DNA from: a virus
Reading direction: 5' to 3' (one strand)
DNA: 28,588 bases
IMG/VR virus record: IMGVR_UViG_3300037484_001834
Each line of letters begins with the position of its first letter. Position 1 is the first letter of the stretch. Below, in pieces: positions 8,158 through 27,062 of this stretch. A program made the position numbers and the translations under genes. The notes under the pieces are model-generated. The model did not search any database. It saw only the letters and a list, made by a program, of their open reading frames with translations, and was not told the DNA's origin.

Positions 8158-8228
8158 TATCTTATATAAGATACCCACCACGTCAAGATCTTTCGTCGTT
8201 TTGGCCTTACATTCTCAAAATCCGAGAC
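8158..8228 (-). promoter_or_regulatory. Promoter P1: palindrome TTATCTTATATAAGATA (8158-8174) over the -10, -35 TTGACG (rc of 8181-8186), upstream dyad TTCTC-N7-GAGAC (8212-8228)
   Basis: Read directly; same architecture as P2-P9. Confidence 0.55.
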
Positions 8229-9458
8229 TTATGGCTTTTTGACGGGCTGACAGGGAACGTCGTCTTTTCCAAAGACGTAGGATTCATAGCCAGCAGCCCT
8301 GATGCTTCCCATGCCTTGGTACTCCTCAAGCCATGAGTCAAGACCAACTGGGTCCGGCCGCCAGATGCGTGTCGTTTGATTCTTATCGAGCTCGCAAAGC
8401 ACGATGGAGGCCGCCGGGTCGCTCAGGGCATCGAGGAAGCGATTAGAATGCGTCGCAATGAGCATGGGGGCTTTTTTGGCCATTTCCTCAAGCATCCAAA
8501 CGACTCTGGATTGAAGAGCAGGATGCAGATTTACTTCCGGATCGTCAAAGGAGAGGATCGAGGGCGTGGTGCTCCCCGCAGGACCTGCGGTCAGCAGGGT
8601 GCTCCCCGCAGGGGTTTCATGAAGCGCGCTGAGCGCGACAAAGGCGAGGTAGCTTCGCTGCCCATCGGACATCATGCTTACCGGCAGGGATTTTCCGGAA
8701 AGCGACCCAAAAACCGCTTCGAGCTCGATATCGGAAGCTCCTGAAGGCTTTAGAACGAGGTCCTTGAGATCGGCCGAAAGTCCGAGTCGCGCCTTTTCCA
8801 AAACTTTTTGCCAGGTGTCTTTTCCCTGTTCGCGAAGTTTTTGGAATGCTCTTGGGAAGGTAAGGGTTTCTTCATGTGGGTGAGTTTTCTCCTTGATCGT
8901 GTAGGGCCAGCCACATTCGTGACCTGAATCGATCCGATCGAGCGCTTGGGCAAGGCGCTCCGTTTCCAGCGATACGCGTCGAATCTCCGGTAGGGCAAGC
9001 GCGTTGGGGGGAATAGATATTTTTTTGCCATTTAATGCATCGAATAGGGAAAGATCAACGACGTGATCGTTCCGCTTTTCCCGCAACATCACACGAACGG
9101 GCTTTTTGTCTTTGTGCACATCGATGCTTTCGTCAACAACGACTACCGAGCCGCCCAGGCAGGCCACGGCGAAGTCATAGTCTATTCTTGGCCCATCGCC
9201 TTCAATCGTGACCCCTAGACCGATCTGGTCTCTTCCTTGACGAAGAAGCGATTGGGCTCTTCCGTGAATTTTCATCGCGCCGTCTATGGATGGAGTTTTT
9301 CTGGCGGCGTGGCCGATGATATCGAGCGCATCGAGGATAGTGGTCTTGCCCGTACCATTACCTCCGATTAGTACCGTGAGCCCGCGAAGGTCCAGCTCGA
9401 TGTGATCGATTACGCGCAGGCCCGATATCCGAAGTTGAGTGATGCAGTCTTGACTCAT
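8229..9458 (-). CDS. ABC/OLD-type AAA ATPase (AAA_21/AAA_15-like) with no nuclease domain
   Basis: Walker A LIGGNGTGKTT, ABC-signature-like SDGQRSYLAF, Walker B/D-loop LSFDDPEVNLHP and H-loop IATHS. Start refined to the ATG at 9458, which forms an ATGA overlap with the upstream ORF stop at 9455. An in-frame PAGST repeat lies between the signature and Walker B. Confidence 0.85.
   Translation of the reverse strand: MSQDCITQLRISGLRVIDHIELDLRGLTVLIGGNGTGKTTILDALDIIGHAARKTPSIDGAMKIHGRAQSLLRQGRDQIGLGVTIEGDGPRIDYDFAVACLGGSVVVVDESIDVHKDKKPVRVMLREKRNDHVVDLSLFDALNGKKISIPPNALALPEIRRVSLETERLAQALDRIDSGHECGWPYTIKEKTHPHEETLTFPRAFQKLREQGKDTWQKVLEKARLGLSADLKDLVLKPSGASDIELEAVFGSLSGKSLPVSMMSDGQRSYLAFVALSALHETPAGSTLLTAGPAGSTTPSILSFDDPEVNLHPALQSRVVWMLEEMAKKAPMLIATHSNRFLDALSDPAASIVLCELDKNQTTRIWRPDPVGLDSWLEEYQGMGSIRAAGYESYVFGKDDVPCQPVKKP
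8568..8612. repeat. Two copies of ggtgctccccgcagg flanking an inverted CCGCAGG-A-CCTGCGG hairpin, in frame within the AAA ATPase gene
   Basis: Read directly. Confidence 0.85.
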
Positions 9459-9844
9459 GGTGATGTGCTCCAATTCCGCTCAGAAAGCCACGAGATAAGC
9501 TCCCCGTGGCGTTCTTCTGGTTTAAAAGTGCCTTCGATGGTCTTTCCATCAGTTACCTCGCCATGGAAGTCGCAAAATCCTTCAGGAGCGATATTGATGA
9601 GTATGGCGAAGTTTGATACGCGCCAGTGGATGTCGATGGACCCATCGGCCGCGGGCGTGATTTCTGGGGCGTCGATCGCGAGCCCGGTCTTCTGCATGAT
9701 TGTGCTCGCGATTCCTCTTAGGAAACTGGTGGCGCGCTCCCAGGTAACCGGTCTCATAGCAGGGCTTCCCTCGCCGTCCCAGTCTTCCTCGAGCTTCACG
9801 ATGAAGGACGACTGAGTGATGGCGCGTTCGATGGCTTCAATCAT
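9455..9844 (-). CDS. hypothetical 129-aa protein, translationally coupled to the AAA ATPase
   Basis: ORF with ATG at 9844. ATGA overlap with the ATPase gene. Confidence 0.5.
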   Translation of the reverse strand: MIEAIERAITQSSFIVKLEEDWDGEGSPAMRPVTWERATSFLRGIASTIMQKTGLAIDAPEITPAADGSIDIHWRVSNFAILINIAPEGFCDFHGEVTDGKTIEGTFKPEERHGELISWLSERNWSTSP

Positions 9845-9866
9845 GGCTAGTCGATTCGCGCCTATA

Positions 9867-25649: not shown

Positions 25650-25666
25650 TTATCCGGAAATCGTTT

Positions 25667-26953
25667 TCATCCCTTTATGCAAACAACCTGCCGGAGCGTA
25701 TGTACGATCTCGACCAGGTCGCGCTGGGCATGCATGACGGCGTCGATGGATTTATATGCCATCGGAGTTTCATCAATTACGTCCAAATCCTTTCGGCATT
25801 CGACGTTGGCCGTGGCGGCCTCGTGCTCGGCGAGTGTGAAGCGTTTCCGTGCTTTCGTGCGGGACATGGCCCGGCCGGCGCCATGACTCGCGCTATGCAA
25901 GCTTTGTTCGTTACCAAGGCCACGCACGATATACGAGCTTGTTCCCATGCTTCCGGGGATGATTCCCATATCGCTCTTGCGCGCACGTATTGCTCCCTTG
26001 CGCGTAACGAACACGTTTTCACCAAAATGGTGCTCCCACGCGACGTAATTGTGGTGGCAATTTATCGACAGACTCCCTCTCCAACTCTCCGATTCAAACG
26101 CTCTTCCCAGCCCCGTGTAACATAGCGCTTGCAGGACAGCAGACATCATCAGCTCGCGATTAATTCGCGCGTATTCCTGCGCCCACTCGGCGCCGAATAG
26201 ATAATCCTCAAAAATCTCTGTTCCTTGCGGCAGGTAGGCCAAATCAGGGTCTGGCAAATCTATGAACCACTTCCGCATGTGACTTTTGGCCAAATCGATG
26301 AAGTCACATCCGATGCGGTTCCCGACGCCGCGCGAGCCGCTATGGAGCATGATCCACACACGATCCTGCTCATCCAGGCACACTTCGATGAAATGATTCC
26401 CGCTACCCAAGGTTCCGAGGTGGTGGATATGAGGTCCTCGATCGAGGCGTGGGTACTTTTTTGCCAGACGCTCGTACCCGGCTTTCAATCCTTCCCATGC
26501 ACGGACTTGCGCCGCAGGGGGATCCTTCCAGGCTCCGGAGTCGTTTGGCCCGCCGTTATTCGTACGGCCGTGAGGCACCGCAGCCTCGATAGCGGAGCGG
26601 ACTTTTTGTAGATTATCGGGCAGCATGGAAGCGGTCATGTTGACTTGTTGCGCCATGACACCGCAACCGATATCAACACCGACGGCGGCGGGAATGATTG
26701 CGCCTTTGGTCGCGATTACACTTCCGATGGTCGCCCCCTTACCGGCATGAACGTCAGGCATCACGGCCACGTGGCGAAAGACGAACGGAAGTCGCGCTAC
26801 GTTCTCCAACTGAGCACGCGCCTCGGGCTCGAATGGAACGCCCACGGTCCAGCACTTGAGCGGCACGCCGCCTTCGACCGGAAAAATCAAGGCGTCTCCG
26901 GTCTTGTCCAGTGCGTAGTAAGCGACATCATCTGCTCTCGTCGTATCGGTCAT
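25667..26953 (-). CDS. rtcB: RtcB family RNA 3'-phosphate/2',3'-cyclic phosphate ligase
   Basis: Full-length RtcB signatures: metal-binding His/Cys positions, HSGSRG, HNY and SASHGAGR motifs. 428 aa. Downstream of promoter P9. Confidence 0.9.
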   Translation of the reverse strand: MTDTTRADDVAYYALDKTGDALIFPVEGGVPLKCWTVGVPFEPEARAQLENVARLPFVFRHVAVMPDVHAGKGATIGSVIATKGAIIPAAVGVDIGCGVMAQQVNMTASMLPDNLQKVRSAIEAAVPHGRTNNGGPNDSGAWKDPPAAQVRAWEGLKAGYERLAKKYPRLDRGPHIHHLGTLGSGNHFIEVCLDEQDRVWIMLHSGSRGVGNRIGCDFIDLAKSHMRKWFIDLPDPDLAYLPQGTEIFEDYLFGAEWAQEYARINRELMMSAVLQALCYTGLGRAFESESWRGSLSINCHHNYVAWEHHFGENVFVTRKGAIRARKSDMGIIPGSMGTSSYIVRGLGNEQSLHSASHGAGRAMSRTKARKRFTLAEHEAATANVECRKDLDVIDETPMAYKSIDAVMHAQRDLVEIVHTLRQVVCIKG

Positions 26954-27003
26954 GTTTCTTCCACTCTTTCAGTTCTTTTGTTCGAATCAAAAGGCAAAAG
27001 GTT

Positions 27004-27062
27004 ATCTTACATAGAATAGTTTCTTGATCAAGGAGAATCGGCCTTTCTCAAAAATTGAGAAT
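27004..27062 (-). promoter_or_regulatory. Promoter P9 for rtcB: TTGATC-N16-TAAGAT plus perfect dyad TTCTCAAAAATTGAGAA (27046-27062), 13 nt upstream of the -35
   Basis: Read directly. Same dyad-to-(-35) spacing as P8. Confidence 0.55.

Follow-up and report, generated by a model that had tools for sequence, protein, structure and literature searches.

A repeated, conserved promoter module with a palindrome over its -10 element as a probable shared repressor operator in a metagenomic gene island

The contig IMGVR_UViG_3300037484_001834 of the IMG/VR virus collection, one whole metagenome contig of 28,588 nucleotides (nt) with a G+C content of about 53%, carries an island of genes along which one promoter-operator module is repeated. 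The whole contig is referred to here as the window. The repeated module is real, statistically solid, and evolutionarily conserved. It combines a -35 hexamer with an 18-bp dyad (inverted repeat) that lies across the spacer and the -10 element. We judge it probable, with moderate confidence, that the module is the promoter and operator of one repressor controlling all the units. A regulon of this kind had been proposed in an earlier note made from the sequence alone, and its central observation, promoters sharing a dyad over spacer and -10, is borne out by the analysis reported here, the promoters being of the sigma-70 type.

The consensus of the dyad is TTATCTTAyrTAAGATAA (pattern TTATCTTAYRTAAGATAA), and both pattern search and statistics agree with the form in which it was first described. 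With up to three mismatches, seven matches were found in the window against 0.01 expected from shuffled sequences; with up to four, there were nine against 0.175 expected from Markov-simulated sequence. The copy at 12597-12614 is perfect, those at 8157-8174 and 12164-12181 have one mismatch, those at 16202-16219 and 18415-18432 two, and those at 27002-27019 and 3273-3290 three; the copies at 15694-15711 and 22213-22230 are added at four. The two central bases are variable (CG, CA, TG, TA, AA). The earlier note had raised the possibility that the 18-mer is equally frequent in coding sequence; within the window, eight of the nine dyads are intergenic, i.e., inside the 1,655 nt (5.8%) that are free of genes. 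The ninth, at 3273-3290 on the minus strand, lies inside the open reading frame (ORF) 3078-3401, has no usable -35, and may be the relic of a module. Some details had to be amended. Three of the five dyad positions given before (8158, 16203, and 18416) were each off by one base and the other two were right, what had been taken for half-sites (15694, 22213, and 27002) are complete though degenerate dyads, and the module, said to precede at least nine units, has eight intergenic copies, seven of which are well formed.

Seven modules, all on the minus strand, share the register TTGAyn-N6-dyad, in which the right half of the dyad supplies the -10 hexamer (TAAGAT, TAAAAT or CAAAAT). The spacer between -35 and -10 is 16 bp in seven of the eight modules. 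The string TTGAy-N16-TAArAT occurs exactly at 8186, 12193, 16231, 18444, and 27031 and with one mismatch (CAAAAT) at 15723 and 22242; the consensus of the portable module is TTGAy-N6-yTATCTyAyryAArATAr. Hexamers close to TTGACA and TATAAT at a distance of 16-18 bp, as in sigma-70 promoters, are present in seven modules, and four of the seven well-formed copies were also picked up by an independent sigma-70 consensus scan. From the -10 hexamer to the start codon there are 23-25 nt at modules 1, 2, 5, and 6, where the start follows AGGAG-like sequences, 51-57 nt at modules 4 and 8, and 6 nt at module 7. A Shine-Dalgarno sequence precedes most of the module-driven gene starts.

Numbered by position, with related metagenome contigs designated by L numbers, the minus-strand modules are arranged as follows. 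Module 1 (8157..8186) has its -35 TTGACG at 8181-8186, its dyad at 8157-8174, and its -10 TAAGAT at 8159-8164; it precedes the gene 7761-8135 and the genes below, with AGGAG in front of an ATG that lies 23 nt past the -10. Module 2 (12164..12193; -35 TTGATT 12188-12193, dyad 12164-12181, -10 TAAGAT 12166-12171) drives the gene 11682-12140 and has an orthologous module in L058. Module 3 (12597..12622) contains the perfect dyad at 12597-12614 and a -35 TTGACG at 12617-12622, which leaves just 2 nt between them. L035, L051, and L058 have orthologous modules that read TTGACG ttctcg yTATCTTACATAAGATAG with normal spacing; 4 bp are deleted relative to them, and the spacer is therefore only 12 bp. 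From its sequence, the promoter of module 3 is probably crippled and its operator intact. Module 4 (15694..15723; -35 TTGACT 15718-15723, degenerate dyad 15694-15711, -10 CAAAAT 15696-15701) heads the Roadblock/LC7-OmpA operon and is near-identical in L058 and L066.

Module 5 (16202..16231; -35 TTGACC 16226-16231, dyad 16202-16219, -10 TAAAAT 16204-16209) precedes the gene 15763-16179 and is a near-identical duplicate of module 6, 5' untranslated region (UTR) included. Module 6 (18415..18444; -35 TTGACC 18439-18444, dyad 18415-18432, -10 TAAAAT 18417-18422) serves a gene of 97 amino acids (aa) at 18099-18392 together with a DUF3560-methyltransferase fusion at 16258-18102, and has orthologues in L059, L066, L073, and L072. 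Module 7 (22213..22242; -35 TTGATC 22237-22242, degenerate dyad 22213-22230, -10 CAAAAT 22215-22220) precedes a 102-aa gene at 21900-22208, and both module and gene are orthologous in L073. The transcript of this gene is probably leaderless, since its ATG lies only 6 nt past the -10; the gene overlaps the ORF 21523-22068 in its longer version, which starts with GTG. Module 8 (27002..27031; -35 TTGATC 27026-27031, dyad 27002-27019, -10 TAAGAT 27004-27009) heads the block from the RtcB gene through the gene of a major-vault-protein (MVP)-like protein. The idea that each leftward unit has its own module did not hold: the junctions 19933-19997 and 21488-21522 lack one, as do the 14 genes below 8135.

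The module was found in four other metagenomic contig groups, and its conservation there supports an operator. Collections were scanned with the module pattern TTGAYNNNNNNNNTATCTYAYRTAARATA, verified on the window first. It matched no viral contig and 41 metagenome contigs. Two of these, L035 and L051, are relatives of the window (71-85% nucleotide identity, two modules each); the remaining matches are unrelated single promoters. Additionally, L058-L062, with methyltransferase homologues at 80% identity, are syntenic with window positions 12211-18708 and have modules at orthologous positions. The 10.4-kb contig L073, which encodes the closest homologue of the MVP-like protein (88%), carries two modules plus an additional dyad that lacks a -35. 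Modules are also present in L066-L069, which have homologues of the small divergent gene discussed below, and in L072, which has a remote homologue of it. Methyltransferase homologues at no more than 75% identity (L054-L057, L063-L065, L070, and L071; 61-63% G+C) are not accompanied by a module.

For the footprint, orthologous modules were aligned without gaps on the dyad in five sets, comprising 16 sequence pairs from five contig groups. Pairwise identity between orthologues is 88% in the -35, 85% in the left half of the dyad, and 87% in the right half that contains the -10, and it falls to 52% in the 6-nt spacer, 56% at the two central bases, and 44-56% in the flanks. Moreover, the symmetry of the dyad is retained across all five contig groups. 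The L066 variant TTATTTTACGTAAAATAA is altered in both halves relative to the consensus, and its symmetry is still perfect. The left half has no role in recognition by RNA polymerase and is nevertheless kept like the hexamers. As the best reading of this pattern, because the left half is conserved without a promoter role and the spacer drifts, the dyad would be the site of a dimeric protein lying over the -10. The note's operator idea thus gains support, as selection appears to act on both half-sites in this small sample of five contig groups.

Under the proposed mechanism, the island would be a series of co-oriented transcription units, each headed by one portable sigma-70-type promoter. The dyad, spanning about -22 to -5, would have a right half that doubles as the -10 hexamer, and a dimeric DNA-binding protein seated on it would block RNA polymerase at every copy simultaneously. 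The units would be silent while the protein is present and would fire jointly when it is missing, e.g., just after entry into a naive cell. The steps of this scheme differ in footing. That a protein binds the dyad is suggested by its sequence conservation; that binding means repression is suggested by the position of the site over the -10, where occluding repressors bind, and that expression comes as an entry burst is proposed by analogy with known regulons, among which the KorA-type arrangement, an inverted repeat over the -10 at several promoters of one element, is the one seen here.

Several points weigh against a shared repressor operator. The copies of the module share ancestry, so that their similarity is partly inheritance, and the footprint covers five contig groups only. 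No DNA-binding protein has been linked to the dyad. Pfam scans of all 38 gene candidates gave neither a helix-turn-helix (HTH) nor a KorA/ArdK-like protein, in line with the earlier remark that no cognate repressor is obvious, and the sole recognised DNA-binding fold in the window is a RelB-like ribbon-helix-helix (RHH) protein. The small divergent gene that travels with the module encodes a protein without a recognised DNA-binding fold, predicted to be neither HTH nor RHH. Furthermore, the entry-burst scenario rests on analogy because genes for transfer, replication, and integration were not found on the contig. To our knowledge, the dyad bears no convincing resemblance to LexA boxes of several phyla, Fur, CRP/FNR or KorA/KorB/KorC sites, or the DnaA box. 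The contig covers only a part of the element, and most likely the gene for the regulator lies beyond it.

The two candidates named in the earlier note, the small divergent gene and the RHH gene, are both weak. The best in-window candidate is the 74-aa orphan gene at 18494-18718, the only plus-strand gene, which diverges from module 6 and has a putative promoter of its own (TTGAGG at 18455-18460, 17 bp, TAAGAT at 18478-18483). The gene is genuine, with homologues 76-86% identical and a dN/dS of 0.19-0.25, and its family is small (three clusters in an index of 5.8 billion proteins; two representatives in 1.84 billion). In each of the four lineages with this gene, it stands back-to-back with a module, behind which the cargo varies: L059 has the methyltransferase there (this lineage lacks the 97-aa gene and retains the module), the window both the 97-aa gene and the methyltransferase, L066-L069 and L073 a gene of 136-150 aa, and L072 Roadblock-OmpA. 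Because these neighbours are constant while the cargo differs in four lineages, the 74-aa gene and the module appear to travel as a unit, as would be expected for a regulator and its operator. In L072, the start codon of the homologue is only 15 nt from the -35 of the module, and the promoter of the small gene must therefore overlap the module.

The gene is thus real and linked to the module; its fold is where the candidacy falters. AlphaFold predicts beta-beta-alpha-beta-beta (pLDDT 80 with four sequences). Foldseek searches with this model gave nothing significant in the PDB or BFVD, a sequence search of the PDB returned a low-complexity match only, and hhalign comparison with RHH proteins was negative. 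The Pfam family DUF2188 matched two of five family members below threshold; DUF2188 is itself uncharacterised (bioRxiv 10.1101/2022.04.27.489752). No relatives of the 74-aa protein were found in viral contigs or plasmids, and neither it nor the 138-aa protein had a tblastn match in 72,556 plasmid records. Its identification as the repressor is accordingly tentative, with the odds leaning against it, and a role as a small anti-defence protein of the cargo is just as possible. Somewhat more doubtful is a wider proposal, in which the 74-aa protein would represent a novel type of small DNA-binding repressor, portable with its own operator-promoter, the unit being copied before successive cassettes and recombination at the copies adding or swapping cassettes. 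If this were true, each newly gained cassette (MVP-like, RtcB, methyltransferases, paralogous proteins) would fall under the same switch.

The other candidate, the RelB-family RHH gene at 28141-28401 on the minus strand, does encode an RHH domain (PF04221, E 4.5e-13), which belongs to an antitoxin-type family. The 187 nt upstream of it (28402-28588) contain no dyad at up to four mismatches, i.e., its own promoter carries no site through which it could autoregulate by the island dyad. It is improbable that this protein is the repressor.

Other explanations of the repeats were weighed against a shared operator. The dyad could have been inherited within a duplicated promoter cassette to which only RNA polymerase binds, leaving the units constitutive. 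Modules 5 and 6 are indeed recent duplicates down to the 5' UTR, the modules are located where gene order reshuffles between relatives, and the search of the window for a regulator was negative. Plain inheritance is at odds, however, with a left half at 85% identity beside an adjacent spacer at 52% between orthologues, and with symmetry that persists in all five groups, including the perfectly symmetric two-sided variant of one lineage; we regard it as unlikely. Slightly less probable still is that the repeats are mainly homology patches or recombinase sites for swapping cassettes, with a secondary promoter role. Cargo genes are reshuffled around conserved modules among the relatives: one of the L073 modules aligns to both modules 5 and 6 (16231, 18444), which in the window flank the inserted block of 97-aa gene and methyltransferase, and the cargo behind the small gene and its module changes in four lineages. 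The Roadblock/LC7 protein (window 15256-15639, L058 2498-2881) is 97% identical in both, and identity drops to 32% for the OmpA-domain protein and 37% for the 617-aa protein encoded immediately downstream, which marks either a sharp mosaic boundary or fast divergence downstream. Repeats of the IncN plasmids recombine too (PMC5371602). This account, however, explains neither the precise interval between -35 and -10 nor how far the start codons lie from them, no gene in the window was recognised as that of a recombinase, and in L035 some breakpoints are intragenic, away from the modules. A recombination role is compatible with a repressor operator, and sequence comparison suggests that the modules act partly as recombination patches, as the IncN repeats do (PMC5371602).

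The remaining proposals give the dyad another active role. An activator or a factor modifying RNA polymerase, as in a phage middle-gene programme, would suit the imperfect -10 hexamers (TAAGAT, CAAAAT) and an island that looks like a timed programme. The site is, however, centred near -13.5 over the -10, the position of an occluding repressor, and the -35 is near consensus, so that no activator is needed. Activation from this position is unlikely also because MerR-type spacer activators need spacers of 19-20 bp, and the spacer here is 16 bp; the chance of an activator appears small. Even smaller is that of an epigenetic switch, in which the methyltransferase encoded at 4065-4859 or 16258-18102 would methylate the dyad and set promoter activity after entry or replication. 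The island does encode two methyltransferases, with the gene of one right behind a module, but the dyad, with its variable centre, has no invariant short palindrome of the type that methyltransferases target, and in L066-L069 and L072 the modules adjoin cargo other than methyltransferases. Least probable, and very nearly negligible, are Frpo/ssi-type single-strand promoters active on an incoming strand, although conjugative leading regions do place such promoters before anti-defence genes (PMC11541004). Five module regions were folded as single-stranded DNA, three of them on both strands, and the folds were no more stable than those of shuffled sequences (z -0.9 to +0.2); pairing is possible for the 18-bp dyad only, and the -35 has no complementary partner.

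The window also contains a second repeated motif, which the original description of the repeats had missed. This motif, ATTCTCrrwTTTTGAGAA (TTCTC-N7-GAGAA), has six copies against two expected at up to one mismatch, located at 8212-8228 (minus strand), 15733-15749, 19978-19994, 21503-21519, 22256-22272, and 27045-27061. Five of the six lie 0-15 nt past the stop codon of the upstream gene. Four copies are 10, 14, 14, and 25 nt from the downstream -35, and two are at gene junctions without a promoter. The motif and the stretch down to the -35 are conserved in L058, L059, L066, and L073. Possible roles are those of an UP-like element, of a second operator, and of an RNA-end element; as a terminator hairpin it is too weak. 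For the second-operator option there is a parallel in the KorB sites of IncP-1 plasmids, whose distances are variable.

The minus strand holds every credible gene except one, and more than half of the encoded proteins have no match in Pfam or PHROGs; a PHROGs search with ten proteins of no known function likewise gave no match. Domain and profile searches recognised, besides the DUF3560-methyltransferase fusion, an orphan N6/N4 DNA methyltransferase (4065-4859), an ABC/AAA_21 ATPase (8229-9473), the Roadblock/LC7 protein with the OmpA-domain protein just downstream, the 903-aa MVP-like protein with Vault_3 and MVP shoulder domains (22371-25082), RtcB (25667-26953), and a tetratricopeptide repeat (TPR) protein (27071-28144), all on the minus strand, as well as an FGE-sulfatase-domain protein and a DUF7448 protein. 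Two families of paralogues are present. The first comprises the 138-aa (15763-16179) and 152-aa (11682-12140) proteins, encoded by the first genes behind modules 5 and 2, and the N-terminus of a 590-aa protein (9867-11639); the second comprises proteins of 358, 514, 181, and 162 aa (20411-21487, 706-2250, 21523-22068, and 19998-20486, respectively).

The ATPase at 8229-9473 has matches in PADLOC to ATPases of known as well as candidate defence systems, namely HEC-01A (E 8e-27), PtuA, AriA, and GajA, and the island cargo may combine defence-like with anti-defence-like genes. The MVP-like protein is a bacterial homologue of the eukaryotic major vault protein, and its gene sits downstream of that for RtcB. 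In L073 the homologue is at 2941-5682, with a Mg-chelatase-like ATPase between RtcB and MVP; a 65% identical homologue is found on the 72-kb contig P0129, and homologues at about 48% identity are common in metagenome-assembled genomes of Myxococcota. The start of the TPR gene is overlapped by the upstream RelB-family gene, and exact-protein look-up gave no identical protein on record for its product. Upstream of the RelB-like gene, the contig end (28402-28588) is GC-rich and contains CCCTTGCGGGGTGTG twice in direct orientation, at 28478-28492 and 28572-28586, 94 bp apart; this may be an assembly-breaking repeat, or the region may resemble an origin or an att site. Neither an overlap nor an inverted repeat was found at the contig termini, nothing points to a circular molecule, and no tRNA genes or Rfam families were detected in the contig. 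Megablast of positions 8000-20000 found no match among PLSDB plasmids (72,556 records) or GenBank phages, nor did positions 8000-12000 match complete E. coli genomes.

By analogy, the island is plausibly the leading region of a plasmid or an integrative and conjugative element, in that its genes are co-oriented and include orphan-methyltransferase types. At least 5000 plasmid records contain a homologue of the DUF3560-methyltransferase, and 4207 of these records are listed as conjugative; genes of this type are typical of the establishment regions of conjugative plasmids. On pAOVO01, its neighbours are ssb, DUF932, a methylase gene, and radC, with traD and trwC close by. Distant relatives of the island adjoin a protein-primed family B DNA polymerase gene in L056 (1-2570) and a tyrosine integrase with an excisionase in L070 (300-1821), and DUF3560 islands therefore ride on differing kinds of mobile elements.

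Multi-promoter repressor regulons explain the short burst, and subsequent silencing, of establishment and anti-defence genes in conjugative plasmids, and those studied come nearly all from a few plasmid groups of Proteobacteria. In the island, nearly all cargo proteins are uncharacterised, and the regulator would belong to no known family. The dyad marks the starts of units and offers a handle for pulling down the regulator and for recognising more of the element in metagenomic data. Unless the regulator proves to have a new DNA-binding fold, the gain for science is moderate.

The closest known arrangement is the KorA regulon of the IncP-1 plasmids RP4/RK2, where several promoters of the same element likewise have an inverted repeat at their -10; KorA of RP4 binds this conserved repeat (PMC9723621). 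Unlike that regulon, the window has no KorA/ArdK-family HTH gene by Pfam, which could lie off the contig, and the island is not an IncP plasmid, with no megablast match in PLSDB. The operator of KorA is GTTTAGCTAAAC, and the island operator is unrelated to it.

A second parallel is provided by the conserved upstream repeat (CUP) regulons of IncN/IncN2 plasmids and the ArdK system of IncW, in which co-oriented establishment-type operons are each led by a repeat that contains a promoter together with an ArdK site (PMC5371602, PMC6289460, PMC9723621). ArdK of R388 represses five establishment promoters (PMC9723621), and strong, tightly repressed promoters of R388 yield a transcriptional burst on transfer followed by silencing (PMC3937220), as would be expected for the island. 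The repeats mediate rearrangements in both cases, and anti-restriction or establishment genes are a common feature. Nevertheless, the sites of ArdK are direct repeats at the -35, whereas the island site is an inverted repeat at the -10. The island also shows no sequence similarity to CUP, belongs to an uncultivated host lineage, and carries other cargo (MVP-like, RtcB, Roadblock-OmpA, and paralogous proteins). Neither a repressor gene of the KorA/ArdK family nor homology to an IncP, IncN or IncW backbone was found in the window.

Anti-CRISPR operons with Aca regulators, found in phages and other mobile elements, are similar in that a strong promoter bearing inverted repeats is silenced, following a first burst, by a small regulator that the element encodes (PMC13551039). 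Aca proteins are usually HTH proteins, whereas the island has no HTH gene, its operator extends over eight promoters, and its linked small gene is divergent with another predicted fold. Additionally, the DUF3560 loci of L054, L055, L063, and L064 also have a small divergent gene and a palindrome upstream of the methyltransferase operon. They differ in a methyltransferase only 72-75% identical, a G+C content of 61-63%, an RHH-like small protein, and the lack of a TTATCT dyad; their palindrome is unrelated and occurs once per locus, e.g., the perfect 24-mer ATAGAATTAGCTAGCTAATTCTAT at 9340-9363 of L055. In L063 the palindrome region is at 9930-9965, and the 5' UTR sequence caagaacgaggtgtcaaATGacaaat is conserved across distant DUF3560 islands. 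Taken together, these comparisons suggest that the dyad regulon is a known regulatory design with an unrelated operator, in a rare, uncultivated lineage of mobile elements.

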